Part shown: piece by piece, positions 8,692 to 30,130 of the stretch
How positions within the stretch are numbered: position 1 is the first letter of the stretch
How the letters are laid out: every line of letters begins with the position of its first letter
Assembly: GCA_020634975.1 (NCBI GenBank)
Contig: JACKAQ010000001.1
Location: 3,383,272-3,447,271 of the forward strand
DNA: 64,000 bases
Origin: Calditrichia bacterium
GTDB lineage: Bacteria > Calditrichota > Calditrichia > RBG-13-44-9 > J075
Direction: 5' to 3'
Notes under the pieces: generated by a model
Databases searched by the model: none
The model's input: the letters and a program-made list of their open reading frames with translations, nothing else
What the model was told of the DNA's origin: nothing
Translations under genes and position numbers: made by a program

Positions 8692-9840
8692 TTAGAAACT
8701 GCTGGCCAAGCTTAAAATTGCATATCTGGTTTTAAGTTGGGATTGGATATAGGGGTTTATGTATTGATCTTCGACCAAAAATCCTTCGGTAGTATGTGCT
8801 TCCACCTTTATTACCAAATTTGCGGAAAATGCATAATTTAGGGCAACGCCAAAATCCTGATGGAATTTTTTATCTATATAAGTGCCGCCGATCAGATTGC
8901 CCATATCGAATGGTACGTAGAATTGATGAAATTTTATGGTTTCGTATTGCAGGTTCATCGACAAATCGCCAACCAAACTCAAACCACCCTGTATGTAATA
9001 GCTGTTCATGTAAAACGGAGAGTTGACAACGGAAATGATGTTGTCTTCCGCACGGATGGTAAATCGCTCGAAATCGCCTTCGATGGAAGCTAGATAGCTG
9101 GTAATTGACGGCTCTTGCAGGTTCGCTAATTGAACAAAACTTAATCCCCGCGTCAGAATTCCGTAATAGCCGCTAAATCCGAATCGCAATCCGTCGATGG
9201 GTGTGAATAACCAGCCCTGATAGCCAAATGCACGTTCAATGTCTGCTTCGTCTACAACCAACGTAACTTCGTTGGTTAAGAGTGATTGCAACTTATACCA
9301 TTCCAGCCAGCTCCATTGCCCGGCAAAAACATCACTACGAACGCTCCAGTTTTTCCCCAGTTGATGGGTGTAGCTTAGCACAATCCCGTTCACCGCTTCG
9401 CTGGAAGCACGGGATTCTGAATAAACAGAAGTTGGCGCCCGGTAAAACGGGAGCAGTACACTTACGTCCCGCAATTCGTTCATGATGCCTAATGGCATTT
9501 GCACTTTCCCGAATTTGATGGAAAATGCTGGCGAAAAATGGTGCTCGAAAAATCCCCAGTCCAATTCGAGATCTTGATTAACCAACATGGTTGGGTTTTT
9601 GCCGAGCCGTTTGTGCGCCAGTTGTACCACAAAGTTATTGGTTTCGTTAACGTCAAACCGGAATTGGAGTGCCAGATTGCGATAATCACTGGTGCCATCC
9701 GTTGGGATACCAAAAATCTGGTGATCATCGCTGATGGCAAATCCCTGCGTCAGATGTCCGAAAACCCGCAATTTAGACTGTCCGGAAACACTCAAAGACA
9801 GTGCTATAAATGCAATAAAAATAGTTGTAATGCGTTTCAT
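8692..9840 (-). CDS. outer-membrane beta-barrel (porin-like) protein, paralog 1 of 3 in tandem
   Basis: It has a signal peptide and the conserved N-terminus 'QSKLRVFGHLTQGFAISD'. The alternating beta-strand pattern ends 'RYAILSLASSF', a terminal Phe as in outer-membrane beta-barrel signatures. It is roughly 60% identical to the two neighbours. Confidence 0.7.
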   Translation of the reverse strand: MKRITTIFIAFIALSLSVSGQSKLRVFGHLTQGFAISDDHQIFGIPTDGTSDYRNLALQFRFDVNETNNFVVQLAHKRLGKNPTMLVNQDLELDWGFFEHHFSPAFSIKFGKVQMPLGIMNELRDVSVLLPFYRAPTSVYSESRASSEAVNGIVLSYTHQLGKNWSVRSDVFAGQWSWLEWYKLQSLLTNEVTLVVDEADIERAFGYQGWLFTPIDGLRFGFSGYYGILTRGLSFVQLANLQEPSITSYLASIEGDFERFTIRAEDNIISVVNSPFYMNSYYIQGGLSLVGDLSMNLQYETIKFHQFYVPFDMGNLIGGTYIDKKFHQDFGVALNYAFSANLVIKVEAHTTEGFLVEDQYINPYIQSQLKTRYAILSLASSF

Positions 9841-9963: not shown

Positions 9964-11109
9964 TTAAAAACTCGTTGCCAGGCTTAAAATTGCATATCTG
10001 GTTCGTAAGGCATCCGGCAGATAGGGCGTGGTAAATTGGTCCTCGACAAAAAAACCGTTGGTTGAATGAACTTCTAACTTTATCACAATATTCGATGAAA
10101 ATGTGTAGTTCAACCCGACACCAAAATCTTCATGTATTTTGCGGCTAATTTTTTTACCAAGTGGCACAATTCCCAGATCATAAGTGACAATAAAATCTTT
10201 AAAATCAACAACTTCGTATTGGGCATTCAGAACAAAATTGCTCCAGATATTTACGCCGGATTGCACATAATAACTGTTCATGTAAAACGGGGAGTTGACG
10301 ACGGATATGATATTATCTTCCGCCCGAACCAGAAATCGATCAAAATCACCCTCCACAGAAAACAAATAACTTGTCAGTGATGGCGCTTTGATGCCGGATA
10401 GCAACTCGCTAAGCCCATTTTCCGTATCGCCGAAATAGCCGCTGAAGCCAAAACGCAACCCATCAATGGGTGTCATTAGCCACGCCTGACAGCCGAAAGC
10501 TTTTTCAATATCAACTGTTTCGAGCTTTACTGAAAGCTCGTTCGATAAAATGGGTGCAATCAAAAGCCACTCCAGCCAACTCCATTGCCCTGCAAATACA
10601 TCGCTGCGGAATCTCCAGCCTTTACCAAGTTTTGTAGAGTAGCCAAAAACAATGCCGTTTACATATTCTCCGGAAGCACGCGATTCTGAGTAAACCGACG
10701 ATGGCGCCCGGTAAAACGGCAGCAAAACGCTAACATCACGCAACTCGTTATAAATGCCCAACGGCATTTGAACTTTGCCAAATTTGAGAAAAATTTCCGG
10801 TGAAAAATGATGTTCGAAAAATCCCCAATCCAGTTCCACATCATCTGCTTCCGATTGTGCTGGGTGTTTACCGAGACGTTTGTGGGCGATTTGCACGATC
10901 AGGTTGTTTTTTGGATCGATGTCGTATCGAAATTGTAAAGCCAGATTGCGGTAATCGCTGGAACCGGATGTCGGAATTCCGAAAATCTGGTGCTCGTCGC
11001 TAATGGCAAATCCTTGCGTCAGATGTCCAAAAACGCGCAGCTTGGATTGACCGGATATGTTCGCCGAAAGTGCAATCAAAAGCGTTGAGATGGTTAACAA
11101 ATATTTCAT
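9964..11109 (-). CDS. outer-membrane beta-barrel (porin-like) protein, paralog 2 of 3
   Basis: It has the same architecture and conserved blocks as paralog 1, including 'ELDWGFFEHHFSP' and 'GKVQMPLGI.NELRDVSVLLPFYRAP'. The C-terminus is 'LSLATSF'. Confidence 0.7.
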   Translation of the reverse strand: MKYLLTISTLLIALSANISGQSKLRVFGHLTQGFAISDEHQIFGIPTSGSSDYRNLALQFRYDIDPKNNLIVQIAHKRLGKHPAQSEADDVELDWGFFEHHFSPEIFLKFGKVQMPLGIYNELRDVSVLLPFYRAPSSVYSESRASGEYVNGIVFGYSTKLGKGWRFRSDVFAGQWSWLEWLLIAPILSNELSVKLETVDIEKAFGCQAWLMTPIDGLRFGFSGYFGDTENGLSELLSGIKAPSLTSYLFSVEGDFDRFLVRAEDNIISVVNSPFYMNSYYVQSGVNIWSNFVLNAQYEVVDFKDFIVTYDLGIVPLGKKISRKIHEDFGVGLNYTFSSNIVIKLEVHSTNGFFVEDQFTTPYLPDALRTRYAILSLATSF

Positions 11110-11249: not shown

Positions 11250-12401
11250 TTAAAATCCGGTTGCCAGGCTTAAAATCACAAAATTAGTTTTTAACGGTTT
11301 ATCCAGATACGGGTTAACGAAAACGTCTTCGTACAACAATCCGCGGGTTGTGTGCGCTTCCAGTTTCATCACAAAACCAGCCGAAAAAATGTAATTCAGT
11401 CCGATGCTGTAATCCCTGTGCAGTTCGCTATCCACATGTCGTTTGGGTAGAATTTCCCGCAGGTAAAACGGTACGATTATGTTTTTTGAATCGATCGATT
11501 CAAATTGAGCATTCAACACAAAGTTGTTCCAAAGATTAAAGCTGCTTTGCAAATAATAATTTTGTAGGTAGAATGGTGAGCCGGATACCGCAATAATATT
11601 TCCTTCCGCACGAAAAACCGCAGCATCGAAATCATATTCAAAAGATGCCAGATAATTTCCCACAGTCGGATTTTCCACCCCGGAGAGCACATTCAGCCCA
11701 AAACCATTTTTTGTGACGCCGTAATAGCCGCTAATGCCGGTTCGCAAGCCTTCAAGTGGGGTGTTTAACCATAATTGGGTGCCCAAAACGGATTCAATAT
11801 CAACCCGTTGTACGTTGGTTTTAAAACCGTTTCCCAACGGATTTTCTATATTTGCCCATTCTCCCCACCGGAATTGCCCCGCAAAAAAGTCGCTGCGAAT
11901 GCTCCAGCCTTTTCCGATGGGAAATTGTATTCCGAAAACCACCCCTTCAATGGCTTCGCTGGAAATACGGGATTCGGTATAAACCGAGGAAGGCACGCGG
12001 TAAAAAGGGATGAGTACACCTACATCGCGAACCTCGTTGAAAATACCCAGCGGCAGTGATACTTTCCCGAATTTGATGTAGCTCGAAGGCGTGGGGCGGT
12101 GTTCAAAAAATCCCCAATCCAGCTCGATATCCCTCGTGATCTCCATCAGCGGGTTTAAACCGAGCCGTTTGTGGGTGAGCTGAACGATAAAATTGTTAGA
12201 TTCGTTGACATCAAAGCGAAATTGCAGTGCGATATTCTGATAATCAGATGTGCCTTTCGATGGAATACCATAAATCTGGTGGTGATCGCTGATTGCGAAT
12301 CCCTGAGTCATGTGTCCGAAAACCCGGAGTTTGGACTGGCTATACAGCGGATTACAAAGCAAAAGAGCGAGTAAAAGTTGTGAAATTCGTAATTTTATCA
12401 T
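11250..12401 (-). CDS. outer-membrane beta-barrel (porin-like) protein, paralog 3 of 3
   Basis: It has the same family blocks, for example 'QSKLRVFGHMTQGFAISD' and 'IELDWGFFEH'. The C-terminus is 'LSLATGF'. Confidence 0.7.
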   Translation of the reverse strand: MIKLRISQLLLALLLCNPLYSQSKLRVFGHMTQGFAISDHHQIYGIPSKGTSDYQNIALQFRFDVNESNNFIVQLTHKRLGLNPLMEITRDIELDWGFFEHRPTPSSYIKFGKVSLPLGIFNEVRDVGVLIPFYRVPSSVYTESRISSEAIEGVVFGIQFPIGKGWSIRSDFFAGQFRWGEWANIENPLGNGFKTNVQRVDIESVLGTQLWLNTPLEGLRTGISGYYGVTKNGFGLNVLSGVENPTVGNYLASFEYDFDAAVFRAEGNIIAVSGSPFYLQNYYLQSSFNLWNNFVLNAQFESIDSKNIIVPFYLREILPKRHVDSELHRDYSIGLNYIFSAGFVMKLEAHTTRGLLYEDVFVNPYLDKPLKTNFVILSLATGF

Positions 12402-14042: not shown

Positions 14043-15770
14043 ATGAGTTGGTTTATTGGCGCATTTCCAAACGGAAACGGGATAATTTCCAAAGAATTCT
14101 TTTTGCAAAAAACAGCGTTTTTGCCCGAACACCGATTGAAAATTTGCACCAAACAACTTTGCCTGATTGCCGGTGGCATCGCAGAAACTTGCCAGTTTTC
14201 TGTTGCTGCGGATGAAACATCCGGCTGGTTGCGGCAGGTGTTGGCATTCATTTTGTCGATGGATTGCCAACATTGATGACCGGCGCAGATTGGTCAACTG
14301 TTTTTGCCGGAGCTGAGACGGATTTGTCATCGCTCAACGGGCATTTTGCCGCAATTGGCTGGCAAAACCGACGCATCCGTTTTTTCACTGATCCGCTGGG
14401 GTTGCGCAACATTTTTTCCGGGAAATTGATGGCGTCATGTGGTTTGCAAGTCGCATCGACTGGTTGGCAGGTATAAAAGCGGTTGCAAAATCGAATTGGA
14501 AACATTCAGTGCGCACTGGCTGTTGATTAATCAATTGTCGCAGGAAAGCGGTGTAACCGGTGTTCGGCGGCTTTGCCAGGGCGGTATCGCAACGGCTGAA
14601 CCGGGAAAGTTCACGCTGACAAACCACGAATGGTTGCCGGATAAATCGCAAAATTTTTCCGAAAAATCGATGCCGGATTTATTGCGCGATTTTACTGTTT
14701 ACGCTCGGCGGGGAAAAACGCTGTCGCTGGGGTTGTCCGGCGGGCTGGATTCGCGGGTGCTGCTGGCACAGTTGCTCAACCAACCGAAAAATGATTGGGC
14801 TGTACACCTTTAATGTTCCGGAGCACCCGGATCGAAAGATTGCCGGTAACATCGCTTCAGCATTGGCATCCCGCAAACGGTAATCCCCGCTTTTTCCCCG
14901 ATACCGAAAAGATTTTTGAAATACTAAAAAACTATGTTGGGCAAACTCGATTGTCATCGCCGGCATCTGGGTTTGTTAATGTTCAATTTACAGCTATTTA
15001 CACCACCTCGGAAAAATCGTTATCGATGGCGGTTCGGGCGAAATTGCCCGGCGACGCTATCTGAACATGCTGCTGCTGCGGGGTAAAACAGCGCTGCTGA
15101 ATGGCAATGTTTCGCAAATTTTGCCGTTTTTGCATGTGCATCGCGCCAATATTTTACTGCGAAGTTCAGTTACAACTGGAAAACAGCCTTGCTGGCGAAC
15201 TGGAAAATGTGTGGTCCCAGATGCCAGATATCCGGCATTTTGGTGTGGAAAACTGGCTGGATTTGTTCGCCATCCGCACCCGATTTCCCAATTTTGCAGC
15301 CTGGAGCAAAGCCGGTCAGATAGTGAACTGGTGAATTTCATGCCGTTTGTGCAACCGGCATTTCTCCAAAAATGTTCGAGACACCGGTTCGCGAACGGGA
15401 TAACGGGCGAATGTTCCGCAAAATTATCCGCGAAAATTATCCATCGCTGACCCGTTTTTCACTCGTGAAAGATGGCATCGTTTATCCGTATCCGTTTAAA
15501 ACCATTTCTGCATCGCTGTGGATGAAAGGAAAACGCAAATTTGGGAAAGTGTATGTCGAGCAAAATACAATTCATTTGCTAACTGCGATTGAGCCACAAA
15601 TTCGCGGTTTGCTGGATTCCGCAACGGTGCGACAGAGTAATTTTTATGATTATCAGATGTTGCAACAGATTGTTGATGGGTTTTACAGCGGCGATCAGCG
15701 CCATGCCAAAGCTTTGGATTGGTGGCTGGCTTTCGAGCTGTATCGGCAGCAAATTGAGCAAACAATGTAA
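14043..15770 (+). pseudogene. asparagine synthetase (AsnB) / lasso-peptide-cyclase-like gene disrupted by at least five frameshifts
   Basis: Consecutive ORF pieces in frames 0, 2, 0, 1, 2(?), 1 and 0 together read like one AsnB-family protein. The blocks in order are 'HFAAIGWQNRRIRFFTDPLGLRNIF' (GFA..W / DPLG), the PP-loop 'LSLGLSGGLDSRVLLAQL', 'LYTFNVPEHPDRKIAGNIASAL', 'IVIDGGSGEIARRRY' and a C-terminal region. No single frame is open for more than about 130 codons. Confidence 0.55.
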
Positions 15771-15981: not shown

Positions 15982-17202
15982 TTGAAACAATCTTTGACAG
16001 GAAACATTTTCCGGATGTTCAGTATTTTCTGCTGCATTTCTTTGCCGATGGTTGCCCAGGTTTGGACAATTCAAAACAGTGGCGTATCCGATCAGCTCAA
16101 AAGCGTTCACTTTGTCAGCAATTCTGAAGGCTGGGTTTGCGGCGATAACGGGGCATTGTTGCACACGGTAAACGCCGGTGAAACATGGTCCCGCGTTGCG
16201 GTTTTCAGCAGTGATCTGCACGAAGTTGCGTTTTTGGATGCGCAAACCGGCATCGTTTCCGGTGATGACGGGGCAATTTTGCGCACAACCGATGGCGGCG
16301 CAAACTGGAGCATTGTTAATAGCGGCACCAGTTCGCAATTGCGTGGCTGCGGTTGGGGTGCGGATGGCATTGCCTGGGCAGCAGGTCGTGATGGCGTGTT
16401 GCTAAAATCGACAGATTTTGGAGCAACCTGGACCCTTCAGCAAAGCGGCACAACCAACCGGATTCGCTCGATCGTGGGATACGGCAGCACTCACGCATGG
16501 GCAGTCGGCAACGATGGATTGATTCGCAGCACAGCAAATGGCAACAGTTGGGCAGCCCAAAACAGCCCGGTTTCGGACAATCTCGAAGATGTTCAATTTA
16601 TCAACACCAACGTGGGATTTGTTTCCGGCAGCGGCACAGTGCTGTTTACCGATAACGGCGGCGCAACCTGGGCAGTTCGTGGCAGTGGCGTCAGCGGCGA
16701 AACCAACGGATTGTATTTTACGGACGAATCCAACGGCTGGGTTGTGAATGAAATGGGGCAAATTTTCCACACAACCAACGGCGGCGTAACCTGGGCAACA
16801 GAAACAACCGGCACTTCCGGTATATTAAATGATGTGTTTGTTGCAGCCAACGGCGCTGGTTGGGCGGTTGGCGATAACGGCGTCATTTTGAAACATGCGC
16901 CACTCACCGGAATTGATGATGAGCCGGAAACCGCCGTTCGCGAAAATAAACTGGCTCAAAATTACCCGAATCCGTTCAATCCCGCGACAACAATTGCATT
17001 TAATTTGGCCAGTTATCAAAAGGTGCAATTAACCGTTTACAACATTGCCGGTCAACAGGTGGCGGAATTGATCAATCAACCGTTGATTGCGGGCGCGCAT
17101 TCGGTTACCTTTTCCGGGGAAAACTTGCCTTCCGGGGTTTATTTTTACGAACTTCGTGCCGGCAGTTTTAACGAAATTAAAAAAATGATGCTGGTGAAAT
17201 AA
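15982..17202 (+). CDS. secreted BNR/Ycf48-like beta-propeller protein with a C-terminal T9SS sorting domain
   Basis: It has a TTG start with an upstream GGAGG and a signal peptide. At least six 'G...T.DGG.TW' repeats of the BNR/Ycf48 type are present. The C-terminus 'NYPNPFNPATTIAF...VYNIAGQQVAEL...SGVYFYELRAG' is a classic type-IX secretion CTD. Confidence 0.75.
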   Translation: MKQSLTGNIFRMFSIFCCISLPMVAQVWTIQNSGVSDQLKSVHFVSNSEGWVCGDNGALLHTVNAGETWSRVAVFSSDLHEVAFLDAQTGIVSGDDGAILRTTDGGANWSIVNSGTSSQLRGCGWGADGIAWAAGRDGVLLKSTDFGATWTLQQSGTTNRIRSIVGYGSTHAWAVGNDGLIRSTANGNSWAAQNSPVSDNLEDVQFINTNVGFVSGSGTVLFTDNGGATWAVRGSGVSGETNGLYFTDESNGWVVNEMGQIFHTTNGGVTWATETTGTSGILNDVFVAANGAGWAVGDNGVILKHAPLTGIDDEPETAVRENKLAQNYPNPFNPATTIAFNLASYQKVQLTVYNIAGQQVAELINQPLIAGAHSVTFSGENLPSGVYFYELRAGSFNEIKKMMLVK

Positions 17203-17307: not shown

Positions 17308-18219
17308 ATGATGCAGCCTGTGAAGAATACGCACACGAAAACCCAACGCGACTGGTTTAAAATTGGTTTGAAAATAGTTTATGTAATTTCGTTATCAATT
17401 TACGCATACTATTTGATAGACGGATTGGGATTTTACCAACTACCGTTTCAGGAACGTCCGCATCACGAGGCATACCGGAATTTGCGGTCCGCCGGATTGC
17501 GCGGGCACGGTTTTGGCATTATCGGTTCGCTGATGATGACGTTGATGCTCCTGTATTCTGTTCGGAAACGAACCAACTGGTTTGGCAAATGGGGCGCGAT
17601 CAGCCGTTGGTTGGATGTGCATATTTATCTCGGGATCATGGGACCACTACTGGTCATTTTGCATACTACCTTTAAGTTGAACGGCATTGTTGCGGTTAGC
17701 TTCTGGTCGATGATCGCGGTTTCCGGCAGCGGAATTTTGGGGAGATATTTGTATTTGCAAATTCCCCGGAACCGGCGCGGAGACGAACTCAGCCTGAAAG
17801 AAATTGAATCGCTCGATCAGGAATTTTCGGAAGAACTTTCCCGCGAACTGGGGCTGAAAAACGGTAAGCTTGCCCGGCTTCAGGAAATTGCCGGTGTGCA
17901 AAATGTAAACAAAGATGCCGGGTTGTTCAGTTTGCTGATGGGCATGCTCCGGTTCGACCTGTTCAGCTTTTTTCGTAAATACCGGCAGCAGCGGATGTTG
18001 CGGAAAGAATTCCAGCTGGACAGCCAGCAATTGAAAGCCGCAATCGAAATTTTGCATCGCAAACAATTGCTGGAACGCCGGATTTTACTGCTCAATCATG
18101 TTCAGCGGCTGTTCCATTATTGGCATGTGTTTCACAAGCCATTCGCGATTTTAATGTTTCTGATCATGATTTTACATATCGGCGTGGCAGTTTGGTTGGG
18201 TTACACATGGATTTTTTGA
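17308..18219 (+). CDS. polytopic membrane protein with conserved intramembrane histidines, possibly a b-type cytochrome / quinol-interacting subunit
   Basis: Several TM helices carry His pairs: 'WLDVHIYLGIMGPLLVILHTTF', 'LFHYWHVFHKPF' and 'MILHIGVAV'. The gene leads the multiheme cytochrome block. The functional call is an inference from the architecture only. Confidence 0.4.
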   Translation: MMQPVKNTHTKTQRDWFKIGLKIVYVISLSIYAYYLIDGLGFYQLPFQERPHHEAYRNLRSAGLRGHGFGIIGSLMMTLMLLYSVRKRTNWFGKWGAISRWLDVHIYLGIMGPLLVILHTTFKLNGIVAVSFWSMIAVSGSGILGRYLYLQIPRNRRGDELSLKEIESLDQEFSEELSRELGLKNGKLARLQEIAGVQNVNKDAGLFSLLMGMLRFDLFSFFRKYRQQRMLRKEFQLDSQQLKAAIEILHRKQLLERRILLLNHVQRLFHYWHVFHKPFAILMFLIMILHIGVAVWLGYTWIF

Positions 18220-18308: not shown

Positions 18309-20027
18309 TTGACCATTCAATCAGCATGCATCTGGCAGCACATATTTTTTCGGTTTTGGCGAATCGTTTTTTTGTGGAATGTTTTTGCAGCAACCTTCGC
18401 AATTGCGCAGCTTTCGCCGGGCGATCTGCACCAGTCTCACGCCAAATTAGAGGGGTTGAGCAATTGCACCAAATGCCATTCCAGCGGCGCACAAATCGAT
18501 CTGGGAAAATGTCTCGATTGTCATAAATTGCTAAAACAGCGCATCGATTCGAACAAAGGGTTGCATGCCCGACCGGATTACAGTGATTGTGTCCACTGCC
18601 ACAACGACCATCACGGCAGAGATTTCGAAATGGTATTCTGGAAAGAGGGACAGGATAATTTTGACCATGATTTGACCGGTTACCGGCTGGAAGAAAAACA
18701 TGCCGAACTGAAATGCCGGGACTGCCATAAACCCGCCAATATCGCCGATCCGCAGCCGTTGCTCAATCAGGATAAAAATCTCGAACGCACATTCTTGGGA
18801 TTGCAGCAAGCCTGTTTAACCTGCCATGCGGATGAGCATCGCGGGCAATTGGCGGAAGATTGTCTGAAATGTCACACCTACAGCGGTTGGAAACCTGCCA
18901 ACCGTTTTGATCACGACAAAGCCAAATTCCGGCTGACCGGATTGCACCGGGATGTAAAATGTGTCGATTGCCACAAAGAAGAGCGTGATAATCGCACAGC
19001 GGACGACCCGACATTTGCCCGGTTTACGGGCATCGCATTTCAGAATTGCACAAACTGCCACGAAGATGTGCACCGGGGACAATTCGGACAAAATTGCCAA
19101 AAATGCCACAGCACTGCCGGCTGGAAAAAGCTGCTTGCCAATGCGGATTTCAATCATAATTTAACGCGATATCCATTGCGCGGCAAACACGCCACAGTTG
19201 CCTGCGAAAGCTGCCACAAACCCGGCATTCCGCGTCGCGGATTGGCATTTGCCAAATGCACCGATTGTCACACAGATTTTCACCTCGGGCAATTTGCGGC
19301 ACGTCCCGGCGGCATCGCCTGCGAAAATTGTCACACTGTCAAAGGGTTTTCTCCCGCGAACTTTACGTTCGACGATCACGCCAAAACGGATTATCCGTTG
19401 GAAGGCGCGCACCTTGCCATTCCCTGCATCGCCTGTCACGCGGGCACGCCAAACGGGCGTGGCAGTTCGCGATCAATGTTGCGGATCAACCGGTTTACCT
19501 TTGTGTCCACCAAATGCATCGATTGCCACAAAGACCCGCATTTCGGCGAAACCAAACGCTTTGTGGATATCAACGGCTGCGAAAGCTGCCATCGCGTGGA
19601 TAGCTGGCGGAGCATCGAATTCGATCACAGCCAAACCGATTTTGCACTGCTCGGCAAACATAACAGCACTGGCTGCATTCAATGCCACGTTCCGGCTGCG
19701 GAAACATCCGGCGGCAAAAGGATTCCGTTCCAGAATATGGCGCAGAATTGCCAACACTGTCACGCGGACAAACACAACGGTCAGTTTGTTACCACATTTG
19801 TTTCCGCCGGAAAAGAAATTCGAGGTACTGATTGCGCCCGGTGTCACGGCGAAGAAAATTGGCAACCGGTGAAATTTGATCATAATCGCGATTCCAAATT
19901 TTCGCTCGAAGGCGCACACGAAAAAGTTGCCTGCGAAGCATGTCACATGACTGTTGCGGAAGCGGACGTCACTTTCCGGCAATTTAAACCACTCGGCAGC
20001 GAGTGTTCGGATTGCCACGGCGGGTGA
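18309..20027 (+). CDS. multiheme c-type cytochrome, 20 CxxCH motifs, with an N-terminal hydrophobic anchor or signal
   Basis: The 20 counted CxxCH sites include CTKCH, CLDCH, CVHCH and CSDCH. Many are followed by a distal His. It has a TTG start with AAGGGAG immediately upstream. Confidence 0.85.
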   Translation: MTIQSACIWQHIFFRFWRIVFLWNVFAATFAIAQLSPGDLHQSHAKLEGLSNCTKCHSSGAQIDLGKCLDCHKLLKQRIDSNKGLHARPDYSDCVHCHNDHHGRDFEMVFWKEGQDNFDHDLTGYRLEEKHAELKCRDCHKPANIADPQPLLNQDKNLERTFLGLQQACLTCHADEHRGQLAEDCLKCHTYSGWKPANRFDHDKAKFRLTGLHRDVKCVDCHKEERDNRTADDPTFARFTGIAFQNCTNCHEDVHRGQFGQNCQKCHSTAGWKKLLANADFNHNLTRYPLRGKHATVACESCHKPGIPRRGLAFAKCTDCHTDFHLGQFAARPGGIACENCHTVKGFSPANFTFDDHAKTDYPLEGAHLAIPCIACHAGTPNGRGSSRSMLRINRFTFVSTKCIDCHKDPHFGETKRFVDINGCESCHRVDSWRSIEFDHSQTDFALLGKHNSTGCIQCHVPAAETSGGKRIPFQNMAQNCQHCHADKHNGQFVTTFVSAGKEIRGTDCARCHGEENWQPVKFDHNRDSKFSLEGAHEKVACEACHMTVAEADVTFRQFKPLGSECSDCHGG

Positions 20028-20202: not shown

Positions 20203-22152
20203 ATGAACAAATGGATTAACATCATCGCTGTGGTTTTGGGGTTGGCGCAAATGGTTTTTGGGCAAGAAAATGTGCAGAATCCGCAGAGCAATGTGCAGAA
20301 TCCGCACGGCAAAATAAAATGGGAATGTGTGGATTGCCACACTACCGAATCGTGGACGGAAATGAAAGACCCGATGGTTTTCCGCCACGAAGCAACCGGT
20401 TTTGCGCTGGTTGGCGCACACAAAATTACCCAATGCATGAGTTGCCACGAAAGCCCGAAATTTGCCGAAGTCGGTGCTGCCTGCGCCGATTGCCACACCG
20501 ATGTGCACCAGGGTGAATTTGGCATCAATTGCCAGAGCTGCCACACTGCGCAAACCTGGGAAAACCGGATCGACGTTCGGCAATTGCACGCGGCTCGCGG
20601 TTTTCCGCTATCCGGTGGACATGCAGTTGCGGATTGCCAAAGCTGCCACATCAGCGAACAGCGCAACGAATTTGCCGGTACCGCAAGCGCCTGTTTTTCC
20701 TGCCACATCGCGGAATTTAACGAAACGGTCGATCCAGATCACCAGCAAGCTGGATTTTCGCTGAACTGCGAAAATTGCCACCAACCCGCGGCAATCGCCT
20801 GGAATCAGAATGTGCGATTTGATCACTCGATTTTTGAATTACGCGGCGCCCACAAAACCACCGAATGCGCGGCATGTCACACCGAACAATTTACCGGAAC
20901 GCCACGCGAATGTTTCGCCTGTCACGAAGCGGATTTCCAGACAGCACAATTGCCCGATCACATTTCGCTCGGTTTCCCAACCGAATGCGCTGAATGCCAC
21001 AACGAAACGCGTTGGCAAGGCGCTGCATTCGATCATATTTCCGCCAGTGGATTTCCTCTGAACGGTGCGCACAGCACGATTTTCTGCGCCGAATGCCATG
21101 TGGACAATCAGATGACCGGATTGCCGCGTGATTGCTTCGGTTGCCACAACGATGATTATCAGGAAACCACCGATCCCAACCACGTTCTCGGAAATTTCCC
21201 GCAGGATTGTTTGGTTTGCCATAACGAATTAACCTTTGTTCCGGCAGATTTCGATCACAATTTGACCCAGTTTCCGCTTACCGGCGCACATGCGACGCTT
21301 CAGTGCGAAAGCTGCCACGAAACCGGCGATTTCACCGCGTTGCCAACGGAGTGCTATTCTTGCCATCAACCGGATTTTGAGGGCACAACCGATCCGGGGC
21401 ATGTGCAAAATAACTTCAGTTTCGATTGTACGCTTTGTCACAGCACTTCCGCATGGGAACCGGCGACGTTTGACCATAACGCCACCGATTTCCCGCTGAC
21501 CGGTGCGCACATCGGGCTGGATTGTTTGAGCTGCCACAGTTCCGGGTATGCCGGAACCCCAACCGCCTGCGTTTCCTGTCACGAAGATGATTTTCAGGCG
21601 ACGACGGATCCCAACCACATCGCTGCTGCATTTCCGCTGGAATGCGAAGTTTGCCACAGCACGGTAGCGTGGGAGCCCGCAATATTTGATCACGATAACA
21701 CAGATTTTCCGTTGACCGGTGCGCACACCGGTGTGGATTGCAACAGTTGTCACGCCAGCGGATACACCGGCACGCCGACAGCATGTGTCAGTTGCCATCA
21801 ATCCGATTTTGACAACACAACCGATCCCAACCACATTGCGGCAAACTTTCCGGTTCAGTGCGAAGTTTGCCATAGCACCACCGCATGGGAGCCGGCAAAC
21901 TGGAATCACGATCAGCTGTATTTCCCGATTTACTCCGGCGAGCACCGCAACGAGTGGGATACCTGCGCGGATTGTCACCTCGACCAGACCAATTTTGCCA
22001 CTTTCGAATGCATTTTCTGTCACGAGCACCGCCAATCGGAAATGGATGACGAGCACAACGACGTGAACAACTACGTTTACGAAAGCACCGCTTGCTACAA
22101 TTGCCACCCGGACGGCCGGGAATTGATGCAATTGGATCGGATGCGTAATTAG
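20203..22152 (+). CDS. multiheme c-type cytochrome, 25 CxxCH motifs, secreted, with a modular tri-heme repeat architecture
   Basis: It has a signal peptide. There are 25 CxxCH sites. A module of about 65 aa, 'FDH..TDFPLTGAH....C.SCH..GY.GTPT.C.SCH..DF..TTDPNH', recurs at least six times. The conserved C-terminus is 'CIFCHEHRQSEMDDEH...CYNCHPDGRE'. Confidence 0.9.
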   Translation: MNKWINIIAVVLGLAQMVFGQENVQNPQSNVQNPHGKIKWECVDCHTTESWTEMKDPMVFRHEATGFALVGAHKITQCMSCHESPKFAEVGAACADCHTDVHQGEFGINCQSCHTAQTWENRIDVRQLHAARGFPLSGGHAVADCQSCHISEQRNEFAGTASACFSCHIAEFNETVDPDHQQAGFSLNCENCHQPAAIAWNQNVRFDHSIFELRGAHKTTECAACHTEQFTGTPRECFACHEADFQTAQLPDHISLGFPTECAECHNETRWQGAAFDHISASGFPLNGAHSTIFCAECHVDNQMTGLPRDCFGCHNDDYQETTDPNHVLGNFPQDCLVCHNELTFVPADFDHNLTQFPLTGAHATLQCESCHETGDFTALPTECYSCHQPDFEGTTDPGHVQNNFSFDCTLCHSTSAWEPATFDHNATDFPLTGAHIGLDCLSCHSSGYAGTPTACVSCHEDDFQATTDPNHIAAAFPLECEVCHSTVAWEPAIFDHDNTDFPLTGAHTGVDCNSCHASGYTGTPTACVSCHQSDFDNTTDPNHIAANFPVQCEVCHSTTAWEPANWNHDQLYFPIYSGEHRNEWDTCADCHLDQTNFATFECIFCHEHRQSEMDDEHNDVNNYVYESTACYNCHPDGRELMQLDRMRN

Positions 22153-22334: not shown

Positions 22335-23957
22335 ATGAAACAGATGTTGAAAATCGCAATTGCGCTATGGCTCGCATTCACGTTGTTTGGCGTGTCGGCG
22401 CAGGAAAAAACCACCCGGTACGAGGTTCGCTATGTTTCTGCGGAAAATGTATATCTTGCGGCGGGCAGCCAGGTTGGGCTGGCGATTGGCGATACGCTGG
22501 AAATCCGCGATCGCGGTAAAATGATTGCCCGGGTGCTGGTCACTTACGTTGCGGAACAATCGTCGAGCTGTCAGATTTTGACCGCCACAGGCGAAATCCG
22601 TCCGGGAATGGGCGCGGTTTTGACTGGCGCAGCGCCGCAAACCGAACCCGGTTTACCCGGTGAAACGGAATCCGGCGACGTATCGAACGAAACAAAAAAG
22701 CGCACCGTCACTGTCCGGACAAAACAAAAATCCCAAAAATCCACCGATCTCAGCGGCAGCATTTCGCTGCGCTATTACACGCTGAACGATCTCACCGAAC
22801 GCAATCTCGATTTTAAACAGCCCACATTTCGGATCAATTTGCGGGCAAAACGGTTGTGGGGAAAAGATTACACACTGCGCATCCACACCCGCACCCGCCA
22901 CGATGAGCGCACCCGTGCCTATCGCGAAGACGTGCCCAAAAGCGAATGGCGCAACCGGATTTACCAGTTTGCACTCGGTTACGAAAACCGCGATGCCCGG
23001 GTAAATTTCCGGCTCGGGCGCATCACCACCAACCGGCTGAGCGGCGTTGGCTACATCGACGGATTGCAGTTGCAATTCAACCTTTCGCCATCGGTTGATG
23101 TGGGAATTTTGGGCGGCACGCAGCCGAACTGGCGCGATTCTGCACCGCAAACGAATGTTCAAAAAGCTGGTGCATTTCTTCATTTTCAAAACGGCGAGAT
23201 GCGCGGTCGCTTTTTCGAAACGACCGTTGCCGCCGCCGGCGCGTATGCGGATGGCGTGGTCAGCCGGGAGTTTTTGTACTGGCGTAGCAATTTTCGTTCG
23301 CCGGGCGGATTCAGCTTTTTCCACATGCTGGAAATGGACATGAATCGCAATTGGCGAAAAGAAAAAACCGGCAAAAGCGCGGTGCTCTCCAATCTTTATC
23401 TGTCCGCGCGGCAGCGTATTTCCGATGCGGTTACTGCCGGCGTTACTTTCGATAACCGGCAAAATTACTGGACTTACGAAATTCGCACATTGGCAGACAG
23501 TCTGTTCGACGATGCGCTCCGAACCGGATTTCGCGGCAATCTTTCCGTTAAATTGCCCGGCAGGATTTACGTTTTCGCCAACGGCGGTTTGCGCAAAATT
23601 GAACGGGATAATGTTACCACAACCTCGTACGCTATCGGCTTGAATCGCAGCGGATTGCCCGGCAACACATCGCTGCGGCTGAACGGCTCCGGTTTTTCGA
23701 ACAAGAATACCAACGGCACGAATATCGGCGGCGATATCGGCAAAAGCTTCTCCGCCGGTCACCGGATCGATATCGGTTATTCGCGCTACGCCTATTCGTT
23801 CGATTGGGACGGCATCAATCGCGTGACCGATACGTACAGCGCGCAAGCCTATTTGATGCTGCCGGCACGGCTGTTTTTCAGCGGGCTGTATCAATACGAT
23901 CTGGGCGATGATATCGAAGGTTTCCGAATGTATCTGGAATTCGGGTATCGTTTTTAA
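22335..23957 (+). CDS. outer-membrane beta-barrel protein encoded between the two 25-heme cytochrome paralogs (putative porin component of a porin-cytochrome complex)
   Basis: It has a signal peptide and about 540 aa. The alternating-hydrophobic strand pattern ends 'YLEFGYRF', a terminal Phe. The position is analogous to mtrB/ombB-type genes. Confidence 0.65.
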   Translation: MKQMLKIAIALWLAFTLFGVSAQEKTTRYEVRYVSAENVYLAAGSQVGLAIGDTLEIRDRGKMIARVLVTYVAEQSSSCQILTATGEIRPGMGAVLTGAAPQTEPGLPGETESGDVSNETKKRTVTVRTKQKSQKSTDLSGSISLRYYTLNDLTERNLDFKQPTFRINLRAKRLWGKDYTLRIHTRTRHDERTRAYREDVPKSEWRNRIYQFALGYENRDARVNFRLGRITTNRLSGVGYIDGLQLQFNLSPSVDVGILGGTQPNWRDSAPQTNVQKAGAFLHFQNGEMRGRFFETTVAAAGAYADGVVSREFLYWRSNFRSPGGFSFFHMLEMDMNRNWRKEKTGKSAVLSNLYLSARQRISDAVTAGVTFDNRQNYWTYEIRTLADSLFDDALRTGFRGNLSVKLPGRIYVFANGGLRKIERDNVTTTSYAIGLNRSGLPGNTSLRLNGSGFSNKNTNGTNIGGDIGKSFSAGHRIDIGYSRYAYSFDWDGINRVTDTYSAQAYLMLPARLFFSGLYQYDLGDDIEGFRMYLEFGYRF

Positions 23958-24105
23958 CCCGAATTTACGTAAATTGCTGAAAATTATGGAAACAGCATCT
24001 TCTCTACGAAGAACCGCATGAGGGGATATTTATTATAGATTTGATACTAATCGCGCAAAATGACGGCTCATAAATTTTGTGCAAAGGCGTGATGGGAAGA
24101 TAAAC

Positions 24106-26031
24106 ATGCGTTGGGCAGCGGTTATTCTGATTGTTGTCGTTTGGGTTAGCAATGGTTTTTCGCAAAATAATTCAAACAATCCCCACGGGAAAATCAAATG
24201 GGATTGCATCAATTGCCACACAACGGATTCGTGGACAACGTTGAAAAAGCAAATGGATTTTGATCACGATGACACCCGGTTTTCGCTGGAAGGAGTGCAT
24301 CAAACCACCGATTGTATGAGCTGCCACACCCTCAAATTTGCCGATGCAACCCGCGCTTGCCTCGATTGTCACACAGATGCACACGAAGGCAATTTGGGCA
24401 TGTATTGCCAGAATTGCCATACACCGCAAAGCTGGAACGATCCCCAAAATATGTTGCAAATTCACGCTGAACGGGGATTTCCGTTGTCCGGTGCACATGC
24501 GATTTCCGATTGTCAGTCCTGCCACACAACCGAGCTGTTCAACGAGTTTTCCGGCACCGCGAACAGCTGTTTCACCTGCCACATGGACGATTTTACCCAA
24601 ACCGAAAATCCAGATCACCAAAGCGCCGCATTTTCGATGCAGTGCGAAACCTGCCATCTTCCCGCTGCCATCAATTGGCAGCAGAGCGTGCGATACGAAC
24701 ATCCGCCGCAATTTGCTATCAACGGTGCGCACCGCTCGCTGGACTGCGCCGAATGCCACAGCGAAACCTTTGCCGGAACGCCGGATATGTGTTTCGATTG
24801 CCATTCAGAAGCGTTCCGCAGCGTAGAAATGCCTGACCACGCGGCGATGGGTTTCCCGACTGAATGCGCAGTTTGCCACTCGGAAAACGGTTGGCAGGGT
24901 GCCGCATTCGATCACGTTCAGGCCAGCGGATTTGAGTTGAACGGCGCACATGCGATTGCCCAATGTGTCGATTGCCACGCCGATAACCAATTGGCAGGAT
25001 TGCCGCGCGACTGTTTCGGCTGCCACGAAACGGAATTTCAGGAAGCGCTGGAACCAAATCACGTTGCCAATAATTTTCCGATGGAATGCCAAAATTGCCA
25101 TGTGGAAGTTGCCTGGCAGCCCGCCACATTTGATCACGATTTGACGGATTTCCCGCTTTCCGGGGCGCATGCGACAATCCAGTGCGCGGATTGCCACGAA
25201 AATGGCGAATTCATCGCGCTGCAAACCGACTGTTACGCCTGCCATCAGATTGATTTTGAAAACGCTAACGAACCTGATCATGTGGCAAATAACTTCAGTG
25301 TTGTGTGCACGGATTGCCACACAGATCTCGCGTGGGAACCGGCGACGTTTGATCACAACGCGACAGATTTCCCGCTGACCGGTGCGCATGTTTCGGTGAA
25401 CTGCATCGATTGCCACAGCGCTGGTTACACCGGTACGCCGACAGCATGTTTCGCCTGCCATGAAACCGATTTTCAAAACACAACCAATCCAAACCACGTT
25501 GCTGCGGGGTTTCCGCTGGAATGCGAGGTGTGCCACACTACAACAGAGTGGCAATCTGCAACATATGATCACGACCAAACAGGCTATCCGCTAACCGGGG
25601 CACATAATTTGCTAACCTGTAATGACTGTCATTCGGGCGGTTATTCCGGCACACCGACGGTTTGTGTGGGTTGCCATTTGGATGATTATCAGGGCACAAC
25701 CGATCCGGATCATGCGGCAGCCGGATTTCCCACAGAGTGCGAAACGTGCCACAATACCACAAGGTGGGATCAGACAAACTGGAATCATGATCAGTTGTAT
25801 TTTCCGATTTACTCCGGGGAGCATCGAAATGAGTGGAATACTTGCGCCGACTGCCATGTGGACCAGAATAATTTTGCGGTTTTCGAGTGCATTTTCTGCC
25901 ACGAACACCGTCAATCAAAGATGGATGATGAACACGATGGTGTAACCGGTTATGTTTACGAAAGCGGTGCCTGTTATGCCTGTCACCCGGATGGTCGCGA
26001 GCGAATGCGACTGGAGCGCATCAGGCAATAG
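24106..26031 (+). CDS. multiheme c-type cytochrome, 25 CxxCH motifs; paralog of 20203..22152
   Basis: The module order is the same and the termini are near-identical ('NPHGKIKW.C..CHTT.SWT', 'CIFCHEHRQSKMDDEH...CYACHPDGRE'). An AGGGAAG SD precedes the ATG at 24106. The ORF track's earlier ATG at 24079 is less likely. Confidence 0.9.
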   Translation: MRWAAVILIVVVWVSNGFSQNNSNNPHGKIKWDCINCHTTDSWTTLKKQMDFDHDDTRFSLEGVHQTTDCMSCHTLKFADATRACLDCHTDAHEGNLGMYCQNCHTPQSWNDPQNMLQIHAERGFPLSGAHAISDCQSCHTTELFNEFSGTANSCFTCHMDDFTQTENPDHQSAAFSMQCETCHLPAAINWQQSVRYEHPPQFAINGAHRSLDCAECHSETFAGTPDMCFDCHSEAFRSVEMPDHAAMGFPTECAVCHSENGWQGAAFDHVQASGFELNGAHAIAQCVDCHADNQLAGLPRDCFGCHETEFQEALEPNHVANNFPMECQNCHVEVAWQPATFDHDLTDFPLSGAHATIQCADCHENGEFIALQTDCYACHQIDFENANEPDHVANNFSVVCTDCHTDLAWEPATFDHNATDFPLTGAHVSVNCIDCHSAGYTGTPTACFACHETDFQNTTNPNHVAAGFPLECEVCHTTTEWQSATYDHDQTGYPLTGAHNLLTCNDCHSGGYSGTPTVCVGCHLDDYQGTTDPDHAAAGFPTECETCHNTTRWDQTNWNHDQLYFPIYSGEHRNEWNTCADCHVDQNNFAVFECIFCHEHRQSKMDDEHDGVTGYVYESGACYACHPDGRERMRLERIRQ

Positions 26032-26067: not shown

Positions 26068-27411
26068 ATGGAATCTATGATTATTTATTTAGCAACAGCG
26101 GCTTTGGCTGTTATCATTTTTATACCTTATTTTGTCAAATTTCGTAAAAAACAACATGAAAATTATGAGCGCCGGAAAGAGGCTGAAACGCTGGGTGTAA
26201 TTCGACCGCAGTCGCAATTTCCACTAATTGACCAGTCACTGTGCATCGGTTGCGGTTCCTGTGTACTGGCCTGTCCGGAAGGTGATGTTTTGGGTGTAGT
26301 GCACGGCAAAGCCATGATTATCAACGGTTTACGCTGTGTTGGTCACGGGCATTGCGAAACAGCTTGTCCTGTTGGTGCCATCAAAGTCGGGCTTGGCGAC
26401 ATCACCACCCGCGATGATATTCCGGTTCTGGACAGCGGTCACCAAAGCAATGTACCCGGATTATATGTTGTTGGAGAATTGGGTGGGTTATCGCTCATCC
26501 GGAACGCCATTGCCCAGGGGCAAAATGCCGTTCGGGAATTGGCCAAAACGTTGCCGGCCAATCGTGATCGTACCATTCGGGATTTGCTGATTGTAGGTGC
26601 AGGCCCGGCAGGATTGACCGCAGCACTCACCGCCAAAGAGCAGGGGTTGAATTATCTGTTGATTGATCAGCAGGAACCGGGCGGCACCATTTTGCAATAT
26701 CCCCGACGCAAATTGGTGATGACCCAGCCGATCAATATACCGCTTCACGGGCGGCTCGACAAAACAGAATACACCAAAGAAGATTTGCTGGAAATCTGGC
26801 AGCGAATTATCAACAAACATCAATTGAATATCCAAACCGGTGAGCGGCTGACCGGGATAAATCCGGTTGGTGATGAATTTGAATTGGTCACCCAAAACAA
26901 CTCTTTTTATGCCCGAAAAGTAGTGTTGGCGTTGGGCAGGCGCGGCACACCGCGAAAATTGGGCGTGCCCGGTGAGAAAATGTCCAAAGTCGCCTATCAG
27001 TTGATCGATGCGCAATCGTATCAAAATGCCCATATTTTGGTGGTTGGCGGCGGCGATAGCGCTGTCGAAGCTGCCATTGCCCTGGCTCGCCAAAAAGGAA
27101 ATATCGTTTCCATTTCCTATCGCAAAAATAAATTTTTCCGCATCAAAAAGAAAAACGAAGATCGCATTATGCGATTGATAAAAGAGAAAAAAGTGCTGCC
27201 GTTGTTCGAATCAACGGTATTGGAAATAGAGCCGGATCGCGTGATTTTGCAGCAAGATGTGGAAATGTTTGAGATCCCCAACAATTATGTTTTTATTTTT
27301 GCCGGCGGAATTCCGCCGTTCAAAATGTTGCAGGAAATGGGTATCCGTTTTGGCGGCGAAGCCAAAACATTTGCGCCACCGGTAGCTGTTCCGTCGGGTT
27401 TCAGCAACTAA
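26068..27411 (+). CDS. membrane-anchored 2x[4Fe-4S] ferredoxin domain fused to an FAD/NAD(P)-binding pyridine-nucleotide oxidoreductase (thioredoxin-reductase-like fold)
   Basis: It has an N-terminal TM helix. 'CIGCGSCVLACPEGD' and 'CVGHGHCETACPVGA' are ferredoxin-type clusters. 'LLIVGAGPAGLTAALTA' and 'HILVVGGGDSAVEAAIALA' are dinucleotide-binding motifs. Confidence 0.75.
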   Translation: MESMIIYLATAALAVIIFIPYFVKFRKKQHENYERRKEAETLGVIRPQSQFPLIDQSLCIGCGSCVLACPEGDVLGVVHGKAMIINGLRCVGHGHCETACPVGAIKVGLGDITTRDDIPVLDSGHQSNVPGLYVVGELGGLSLIRNAIAQGQNAVRELAKTLPANRDRTIRDLLIVGAGPAGLTAALTAKEQGLNYLLIDQQEPGGTILQYPRRKLVMTQPINIPLHGRLDKTEYTKEDLLEIWQRIINKHQLNIQTGERLTGINPVGDEFELVTQNNSFYARKVVLALGRRGTPRKLGVPGEKMSKVAYQLIDAQSYQNAHILVVGGGDSAVEAAIALARQKGNIVSISYRKNKFFRIKKKNEDRIMRLIKEKKVLPLFESTVLEIEPDRVILQQDVEMFEIPNNYVFIFAGGIPPFKMLQEMGIRFGGEAKTFAPPVAVPSGFSN

Positions 27412-28503: not shown

Positions 28504-28506
28504 CGT

Positions 28507-29886: not shown

Positions 29887-30130
29887 TTTATGTATCCGTG
29901 AAATGATGTTTAACTTTGGGAAATTAAGCGCTTCAAAATTACCCGGAAATCCGCTGAAAAAAGCGGTTGAAATTACAATTTTCAGCGATATGTATCCTGA
30001 TACGCAACAAATTAATGGCTGCCGCAGCCGCTATCAACGACTTTGTGAAAATAATCCTCAAATTGGTGCGAACTCATTGTCCAGCCAAAAAAATTGTAAC
30101 TATTCTAAATTTGAGGGATATTATCTGTGT

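Follow-up and report, generated by a model that had tools for sequence, protein, structure and literature searches.

A predicted diheme b-type cytochrome of the PCC3 inner-membrane class and its candidate flavoprotein donor in a multiheme cytochrome cassette of a Calditrichia bacterium

To our knowledge, electrons reach the periplasm by way of a quinol dehydrogenase (CymA, ImcH, CbcL or CbcBA) in every characterised Gram-negative pathway for extracellular electron transfer (EET), and it is this step that sets the energy yield of the pathway. These entry proteins carry c-type hemes, either alone or when fused to, or partnered with, a b cytochrome of the HydC/FdnI type, and we know of no dedicated NAD(P)H flavoprotein in their operons. 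Here we describe a gene cassette in a 64,000-nucleotide stretch of a Calditrichia bacterium genome (assembly GCA_020634975.1, contig JACKAQ010000001.1, positions 3,383,272 to 3,447,271 of the forward strand), hereafter the window, with all positions counted from its first letter. The cassette begins with a gene for a predicted diheme b-type cytochrome of the PCC3 inner-membrane protein (IMP) type, continues with three multiheme cytochromes (MHCs) and a putative outer-membrane barrel, and ends with a membrane-anchored iron–sulfur flavoprotein, FerFAD, which we propose from its sequence and position to be the cytoplasmic electron donor to the IMP.

The closest described counterparts of this protein are the IMPs of the PCC3 and PCC4 clusters, which have ~300 amino acids (aa), five transmembrane (TM) helices, an SGXXG motif on TM4 and a WX3HX13H motif on both TM3 and TM5 (He, Barco, Emerson & Roden 2017, PMC5566968). 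The ferric-reductase domain and cytochrome b served as models for the prediction that these proteins hold two b hemes (PMC5566968), and the class remains experimentally uncharacterised. PCC3 clusters were described in Proteobacteria (type clusters Slit_0867–0870 and Slit_1446–1449 of Sideroxydans ES-1 and those of Leptothrix SP-6), where they consist of four genes and were fitted with a quinone-linked model of Fe(II) oxidation; beside the IMP they encode a porin (22 TM strands in Leptothrix cholodnii), a conserved periplasmic cytochrome of ~21 hemes and a variable, very large extracellular cytochrome. Four central conserved histidines in a small polytopic protein are also found in the DUF4405, MsrQ-like, PepSY-like and FezC cytochromes (PMC11334425). 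One purified DUF4405 protein, kin of the MsrQ-like and PepSY-like cytochromes, was shown to bind heme b, and for DUF4405 kin a role was proposed in supplying redox partners outside the cytosol with electrons that cross the cytoplasmic membrane (Huang et al. 2024, PMC11334425). In the ferric reductase superfamily (PF01794), SpNOX is able to reduce cytochrome c, and MsrQ–Fre represents a split version of the NOX/FRE layout.

The IMP gene (17308–18219, + strand) is an intact, ATG-started open reading frame (ORF) of 303 aa, which include 12 histidines and no cysteine. Hydropathy and an AlphaFold2 (AF2) model based on 32 homologs (mean pLDDT 83.7, pTM 0.76) place five long TM helices at approximately residues 17–43, 64–88, 98–120, 126–150 and 268–296. 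TM3 houses H105 and H119 within the motif W101-x3-H105-x13-H119 (17608–17664, + strand), TM4 carries S141-G142-x-x-G145, here S141-G142-I-L-G145 (17728–17742, + strand), and TM5 houses H276 and H290 within W272-x3-H276-x13-H290 (18121–18177, + strand). Exactly 13 residues separate the histidines within each of the two conserved pairs. Likened in this way to the type IMPs through their published description, the window protein matches it in every feature. TM4 and TM5 are connected by a ~110-aa helical insert (residues ~155–265; 17770–18102, + strand), which is cytoplasmic, rich in lysine and arginine and variable in sequence. The helices of the insert (163–181, 185–195, 206–218, 220–235 and from 239 onward in the AF2 model) are poorly conserved, and we consider this region a candidate docking platform for FerFAD.

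To follow the histidines across the family we used two sets of homologs: a close set of 32 sequences (46–67% identity) and a broad set of 113 sequences, composed of representatives mutually ≤50% identical plus three plasmid homologs (26–34% identity). The close set keeps six histidines without exception. In the broad set, H105 and H119 are conserved in 100% of the sequences and H276 and H290 in 96%, alongside S141 (96%), G142 (100%), G145 (100%) and W272 (97%). The remaining histidines are less constant, with H273 at 87%, H67 at 61%, H270 at 47% and H52/H53 at 24–49%, while H9, H250 and H264 are unconserved. W101 is invariant among the close homologs and is replaced by leucine in the Legionella and Rhizorhabdus homologs. 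The four central histidines are kept even at 22–27% identity, in the Legionella, Rhizorhabdus and Sphingobium homologs, and the alignments confirm a histidine pattern far beyond chance.

The distribution of charges, counted in the window protein and in its homologs, defines the orientation of the protein. Over the 113 homologs, the TM2–TM3 loop (residues 86–99) contains on average 5.6 lysines and arginines versus 0.2 aspartates and glutamates, and the insert contains on average 20 lysines and arginines. By the positive-inside rule, these charge counts place loop 86–99 and the insert in the cytoplasm and the C-terminus outside. This orientation brings H105 and H276 close to the cytoplasmic side of the membrane and H119 and H290 close to the periplasmic side. 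H270 and H273, which serve as accessory positions in the TM5 motif, are found at the cytoplasmic mouth of TM5 and not deep within the bilayer. Given this arrangement, the IMP very probably binds two b hemes, one on the cytoplasmic side between H105 and H276 and one on the periplasmic side between H119 and H290. A preliminary description of the window, made from its letters, had seen in this gene a polytopic membrane protein with paired TM histidines suited to bis-His ligation of heme b, pointing to the strings VHIYLG, VILHTT, FHYWHVFHKPF and MILHIGV, which correspond to H105, H119, H270/H273/H276 and H290, respectively. That picture is borne out by the five helices and by the conservation of the four histidines, on which it had asked for a check. 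Since a diheme b prediction for such an IMP had already been published, the core idea amounts to a rediscovery of the PCC3 IMP.

The family to which the IMP belongs is large: it comprises 3858 clusters at the 50% identity level, 2699 matches at E ≤ 1e-3 were obtained from 90% clusters, and every member is annotated as hypothetical. The window protein itself reaches DUF4405 (PF14358) with 19.6 bits (E 1.3e-3), below the gathering cut-off of 26.7. Among 32 relatives, DUF4405 was matched by 17 at E < 0.01 (best 3.1e-6), Ferric_reduct by six (best 6e-4, all below threshold, which is the extent of the profile similarity to the ferric reductase superfamily in this sample) and Ni_hydr_CYTB by two (E ~1e-3). 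The recurrent Pfam matches of these relatives are confined to the three families, all of which are diheme or heme-b membrane families. No NCBIfam model exists for the IMP or for the barrel protein described below, and a sequence search of the PDB with the IMP family profile gave nothing over noise. The best-scoring Foldseek matches of the IMP model in the PDB were unrelated helical proteins; a few ABC-transporter chains also occurred, at non-significant E-values of ~1–5. By profile comparison, on the other hand, the IMP family aligned with the IMP of the alphaproteobacterium Sphingobium herbicidovorans with an hhalign probability of 96.8% (E 3e-10) over 224 columns and with all motifs in register; upstream of the latter lies a gene containing Fer4_11 (PF13247), as in PCC4 subgroup II.

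In principle, the histidines of the IMP could serve as ligands of a metal ion or border a path for transport, which would make the protein a transporter or a sensor. The position of the window protein under the Pfam threshold for every heme-protein family, and the lack of a significant structural match for it in the PDB, would be compatible with such a function. However, the H-x13-H pairs, present on two helices, are an exact match to the bis-heme signature, the weak Pfam matches go only to DUF4405, Ferric_reduct and Ni_hydr_CYTB, and redox proteins form the context of the gene in every locus examined. We therefore regard a non-cytochrome function as extremely improbable. A match to a transporter fold, which the preliminary description had named as one of the observations that would overturn it, was absent, as neither Foldseek against the PDB nor the PDB profile search returned a significant match of any kind. 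Two long proteins that combine part of an IMP with a redox partner were considered as Rosetta-stone evidence and dropped: P0258 (418 aa), in which the N-terminal half of an IMP is followed by the C-terminal half of Pyr_redox_3, and P0248 (886 aa), in which the N-terminal half of an IMP is joined to a multiheme cytochrome. The IMP is truncated in both, and they may be cassette deletions or artefacts of assembly or gene calling.

The IMP can be compared with several known membrane cytochromes. It resembles the DUF4405 proteins, the best Pfam match of its family, in its four conserved TM histidines, but its TM helices number five where theirs number six, it contains a cytoplasmic insert of 110 aa, and its partners are multiheme cytochromes and an iron–sulfur flavoprotein, whereas those of the DUF4405 kin are ApbE-flavinylated proteins. 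It shares the H-x13-H pairs on TM3 and TM5 with NOX, FRE and MsrQ (PF01794), which again have six helices, and its acceptor here is a multiheme cytochrome c, whereas theirs are O2, an Fe(III) chelate or MsrP. Its place in the pathway would be that of CymA (NapC/NirT), ImcH, CbcL and CbcBA, at the inner membrane, where electrons enter the multiheme chain of the periplasm and outer membrane. Unlike these proteins, the IMP contains neither CxxCH nor any cysteine. Together with Pfam matches that stay sub-threshold, this sets it outside the CymA, CbcL and ImcH families, to none of which it had obviously belonged in the preliminary description. It also shows no significant similarity to the b561/Ni_hydr_CYTB family (FdnI, HyaC and the b domain of CbcL).

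The IMP gene leads a block of six genes on the + strand in the order IMP, MHC1, MHC2, p540, MHC3 and FerFAD, and the preliminary description was correct in placing it at the head of a cytochrome block, since one 20-heme and two 25-heme cytochromes follow on the same strand. MHC1 (18309–20027, + strand) is a 572-aa cytochrome c with a signal peptide and 20 CxxCH motifs, presumed to span the periplasm and to accept the electrons of the IMP. MHC2 (20203–22152, + strand), a 649-aa cytochrome c with 25 CxxCH motifs, is presumed to be an outer or extracellular cytochrome. In p540 (22335–23957, + strand), which has 540 aa, a signal peptide and a small N-terminal β domain are followed by a disordered linker and a region of 22 strands, and the protein ends in ...GYRF. 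No Pfam match was found for it, while its AF2 model (pLDDT 87.9) forms a 22-strand β-barrel from residue 138 onward, for which Foldseek returned usher pores and porins of the PDB with a probability of 1.00 and E-values down to 7e-10. By this model, p540 is an outer-membrane barrel, presumed to form the porin sheath of the conduit. MHC3 (24079–26031, + strand), a 650-aa cytochrome c with 25 CxxCH motifs, is a paralog of MHC2 (61% identity). The genes of the two paralogs flank the barrel gene in the window, and the same arrangement is seen at a locus from a metagenome-assembled genome (MAG), L006, which is 97% identical. Since most related loci lack a cytochrome between the barrel and FerFAD, the pair represents a lineage-specific duplication. 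A scan of the cassette for promoters and terminators performed no better than on shuffled sequence.

The set of proteins is thus similar to that of PCC3, with 22 predicted barrel strands, a first cytochrome of 20 hemes and large cytochromes beyond it. It differs from PCC3 in its carriers, which belong to Calditrichota, Zixibacteria, Ignavibacteria, Acidobacteriota and Bacteroidota (Emticicia), and in the invariable presence of a fifth gene, FerFAD. Four metagenome homologs showed the identical order of IMP, MHC, further MHC(s), a ~540-aa protein and FerFAD between unrelated flanks. A scan of one genome per GTDB species then returned 80 loci, from Calditrichota, Zixibacteria, Ignavibacteria, Acidobacteriota, one Polyangiaceae MAG and others; the window shares 97% identity with the chromosome of a Calditrichia MAG (OZ245730.1). 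When the 53 non-redundant loci with at least 9.9 kb of downstream DNA were searched by tblastn, the IMP, MHCs, barrel and FerFAD were present in all 53. The barrel and FerFAD genes are separated by a median of 30 nt. Of 58 related loci, 54 have a 20-heme cytochrome in the first position after the IMP, and the second cytochrome position is variable, with 8–58 hemes. Across the loci, FerFAD is the most conserved component (50–67% identity), followed by the IMP (42–62%) and the barrel (27–47%). The reverse look-up, starting from FerFAD homologs, led to the same cassette in both cases (2/2), with the IMP motifs confirmed. In two related loci, ferritin and Fur genes, or Fur and an iron-dependent repressor, are found upstream of the cassette, directly adjacent in L094 (611–1700) and ~9 kb away in L001 (1–754), which hints at an iron-responsive control of the cassette.

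FerFAD (26068–27411, + strand) is a protein of 447 aa with an N-terminal TM anchor, a ferredoxin domain for two [4Fe-4S] clusters and a domain for FAD and NAD(P)H. The anchor is present in 54 of 58 homologs and is followed by lysine or arginine residues. Pfam identified Fer4 families and Pyr_redox_3, the latter at 1.8e-42. The flavin domain is of the two-dinucleotide-binding type, with YpdA, thioredoxin reductase (TrxR) and the TrxR-type ferredoxin-NADP reductase (FNR) as its best PDB matches, and homologs are currently mislabelled as 'thioredoxin reductase' or 'YpdA' in annotations. All seven cysteines lie within the iron–sulfur domain, and the flavin domain has no redox CxxC. The first cluster motif reads CxxCxxCxxxCP and the second C-x2-H-x2-C-x3-CP. 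In the second (residues 90–101; 26335–26370), a histidine conserved in at least 90% of 58 homologs occupies the position where a ferredoxin normally has its second cysteine. This substitution suggests that the second cluster is either a [4Fe-4S] with a histidine ligand or a [3Fe-4S], and it may be the one from which electrons leave toward the IMP. With regard to NOX and FRE, FerFAD differs in being a separate, membrane-anchored protein with additional iron–sulfur clusters and a TrxR-like rather than an FNR fold.

Distant IMP homologs were found in cultured bacteria by tblastn of plasmids. Plasmid pEMTOL02 of the Bacteroidota species Emticicia oligotrophica DSM 17448 carries ccsA, an IMP (34% identity), FerFAD, a 23-heme MHC, a 40-heme MHC and a 538-aa protein, with 5 nt between the IMP gene (EMTOL_RS21090) and the FerFAD gene (EMTOL_RS21095) downstream of it. 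In S. herbicidovorans, an 825-aa protein composed of Pyr_redox_3, two cNMP-binding domains and Fer4 overlaps the start codon of the IMP, and a 10-heme cytochrome follows. A third arrangement, seen on plasmids of Rhizorhabdus, Sphingobium, Legionella, Variovorax and Alteromonas, consists of a 630–690-aa flavoprotein, an IMP of 240–250 aa and a 7-heme cytochrome, whose stop and start codons overlap or nearly abut (L087, 4980–8337; L088, 5082–8553; L091, 4824–8498; L092, 3959–7442); many of these plasmids are conjugative. Here the flavoprotein has one or two hydrophobic N-terminal segments followed by FAD_binding_6, NAD_binding_1 and Fer2 (2Fe-2S), with weak matches to the ferric-reductase NAD_binding_6, and this is a further likeness of the distant IMPs to the NOX/FRE layout. 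Three non-identical NAD(P)H–flavin–FeS architectures are therefore found beside one membrane family, and a multiheme cytochrome c follows in every case. The recurrence of these architectures favours direct cytoplasmic electron input over quinol. As to their surroundings, in the loci inspected the three-gene module of Rhizorhabdus, Variovorax and Legionella has neighbours for copper/heavy-metal resistance or for a multicopper oxidase, and that of Alteromonas has hydrogenase genes beside it; one copy in Legionella fallonii is annotated as 'iron reductase'.

The ccsA gene directly before the Emticicia IMP raises the question of whether these proteins could assist cytochrome maturation, with the TM histidines handling heme as in CcsA or CcmF and FerFAD supplying reductant while ~70 c-hemes are attached; the TrxR-like flavin domain of FerFAD would fit such a role. 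We consider it very unlikely. The IMP has no WWD motif and no cysteine, the flavin domain of FerFAD no redox CxxC, and ccsA is absent from the other cassettes examined. Moreover, the three-gene modules with a single 7-heme cytochrome resemble electron-transfer chains rather than systems for maturation.

With FerFAD as the constant neighbour of the IMP, electrons may enter the wire directly from the cytoplasm rather than from quinol, and the following sequence of events can be envisaged. NAD(P)H would be oxidised at the FAD of the membrane-anchored FerFAD. Its two iron–sulfur clusters, located just after the anchor and thus at the membrane surface, would relay the electrons to the inner heme of the IMP (H105/H276), from where they would cross the membrane to the outer heme (H119/H290) and reduce the 20-heme periplasmic cytochrome. 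The 25-heme cytochromes, threaded through the 22-strand barrel or docked on it, would finally deliver them outside the cell. From motifs, topology, gene order and the domain content of the partners, we infer that the IMP binds heme, that FerFAD makes contact with it, that NAD(P)H is the donor and that electrons flow outward. The whole would correspond to a 'split NOX / ferric reductase' joined to a porin–cytochrome wire, a quinone-independent electron outlet that would serve redox balancing or extracellular metal reduction. Electrons that pass outward from NAD(P)H would draw down the membrane potential, which suggests a role in redox balancing or in the production of an extracellular reductant rather than an energy-conserving one. 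We place moderate confidence in the assignment of the window protein as a subunit of a PCC3-type conduit fed through FerFAD, its iron–sulfur clusters and two b hemes into the multiheme chain, and the same measure of confidence in FerFAD as its direct flavoprotein donor.

The principal alternative is that the IMP is a quinol dehydrogenase, as the preliminary description had supposed, which oxidises menaquinol and reduces the 20-heme cytochrome, while FerFAD would be an NAD(P)H:quinone reductase (compare Listeria Ndh2) or an unrelated accessory. A diheme b architecture is typical of the quinone-active FdnI, NarI, HyaC and cytochrome b, and the majority of the prokaryotic diheme b membrane subunits characterised so far act on quinones. 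The flavin domain of FerFAD falls into the fold class of the NDH-2 enzymes, which share the Pyr_redox_2 fold. In addition, the genes for subunits II and I of a cytochrome bd quinol oxidase (27466–29886, − strand) adjoin the cassette and converge with its end, so the organism also has quinol-dependent respiration. A quinol role for the IMP was proposed by He et al. (PMC5566968), and the proteobacterial clusters with four genes and no flavoprotein fit this proposal. On the other side, the present data indicate no quinone site, and FerFAD has a two-[4Fe-4S] ferredoxin domain between anchor and flavin that NDH-2 enzymes do not have. Furthermore, the three NAD(P)H–flavin–FeS architectures adjoining IMPs each place an Fe-S domain at one end, often with overlapping stop and start codons, and FerFAD is conserved more strongly than the IMP itself. 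On balance, quinol oxidation by the IMP appears the weaker option, and we hold it to be viable and less likely than a feed from NAD(P)H.

Several observations nevertheless weigh against a feed from NAD(P)H through FerFAD and against the link to NOX-like proteins. Synteny is no proof of contact, and FerFAD could reduce quinone and the IMP then oxidise the quinol. An outflow from NAD(P)H would dissipate membrane potential, and ~70 hemes would be an unusual investment for it. Since the published proteobacterial PCC3 clusters contain four genes and no flavoprotein (PMC5566968), this type of IMP may work without an adjacent dehydrogenase. E. coli MsrQ was recently reported with a ubiquinone cofactor (PMC12525009). 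In hhalign comparisons with single-sequence templates, the IMP family reached a probability of 0.1% with E. coli MsrQ and 0.5% with YodB, neither of them significant, and Foldseek of the IMP model against the PDB gave no match at E ≤ 0.001, with STEAP1 only at E ~3. As these comparisons were insignificant, placement of the IMP in the ferric reductase domain (FRD) superfamily rests on its motifs and the weak Pfam matches.

The direction of electron flow through the conduit was also considered. In the reverse case, the conduit would take up electrons from Fe(II), minerals or partner cells, and the IMP would pass them to the quinone pool or, via FerFAD, to NAD(P)+. Fe(II) oxidisers are the bacteria in which PCC3 was first found, and an uptake function was modelled for it (PMC5566968); a PCC3 IMP gene is upregulated in iron-oxidising cells of Sideroxydans CL21. 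In S. lithotrophicus ES-1, by contrast, both PCC3 clusters are downregulated on Fe(II). The carriers found here (Calditrichota, Zixibacteria, Ignavibacteria, Acidobacteriota and Emticicia) are not known as iron oxidisers, and transfer against the membrane potential and uphill to NAD(P)+ would be energetically unfavourable. Inward uptake thus seems improbable, and outward transfer from NAD(P)H remains our preferred reading.

In the literature on the HX13H motif, on PCC3 and on multiheme clusters of Calditrichota, Ignavibacteria and Zixibacteria, we found neither a FerFAD partner nor such a cassette outside Proteobacteria, and the architectures described in a 2026 peat preprint differ from the IMP cassette. 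As far as the searchable literature shows, three aspects therefore appear to be new: the abundance of the IMP family in Calditrichota, Zixibacteria, Ignavibacteria, Acidobacteriota and Bacteroidota, the presence of FerFAD as an invariable fifth gene, and the recurrence of alternative flavo-FeS partners, on account of which NAD(P)H is now favoured over quinol as the donor. More tentatively, they may define a widespread class of EET that does not start at the quinone pool, in which a membrane-anchored NAD(P)H–FAD–[4Fe-4S] dehydrogenase would dock on a five-helix diheme b IMP as a split NOX and pass cytoplasmic electrons directly into a periplasm-spanning 20-heme cytochrome and a porin–cytochrome outlet, and in which the IMP was combined at least three times with different dehydrogenases, one of these combinations being carried by mobile plasmids. 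If this holds true, an NAD(P)H-fed conduit entered through a NOX-like diheme b protein would conserve no energy at the entry step and would suit fermentative redox balancing or the making of an extracellular reductant, and metagenomic multiheme-cytochrome clusters would be read differently. The family is large and common in sediment phyla (Calditrichota, Zixibacteria, Ignavibacteria and Acidobacteriota), and the unexplained PCC3 IMP gains in FerFAD a concrete, testable partner; with E. oligotrophica DSM 17448 and its plasmid pEMTOL02, a cultured carrier has been identified in which genetic tests can be performed.

Just upstream of the cassette, the window encodes a secreted β-propeller (15982–17202) that is BNR/Ycf48-like and has a sorting tail of the type IX secretion system (T9SS). 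The upstream propeller is of the Kelch type in two related loci, L001 (7945–9189) and L003 (5845–7110), with a T9SS sorting tail recorded for L003, and genes for a GAF/sigma-54 activator and a PEGA-domain Ser/Thr kinase are located close by in both. These propeller and regulator genes may form a conserved accessory or regulatory neighbourhood. Between ~14000 and 15900 there is no long ORF, and overlapping ORF fragments occupy all three + frames. One of these (14439–14813) contains 'LGLSGGLDSRVLLA', a PP-loop motif typical of asparagine-synthetase-like amidotransferases, and the region looks like a frameshifted pseudogene or the result of assembly errors. Further upstream, three tandem genes on the − strand (8692–9840, 9964–11109 and 11250–12401) encode ~382-aa proteins with no Pfam or NCBIfam match. 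Inspection of one of them showed a signal peptide and a C-terminal ...ATGF, and the three are probably paralogous outer-membrane β-barrels.

On the other side of the cassette, the cytochrome bd genes are followed by a gene for an extracytoplasmic function (ECF)-type sigma factor (29903–30622). Finally, a 2265-aa ORF (46785–53582, − strand), with weak C-terminal matches to Big_1 and FlgD_ig only, is followed by genes for a FlgD_ig protein of 446 aa and a TPR protein of 1044 aa, and together they constitute a large uncharacterised surface-protein locus.

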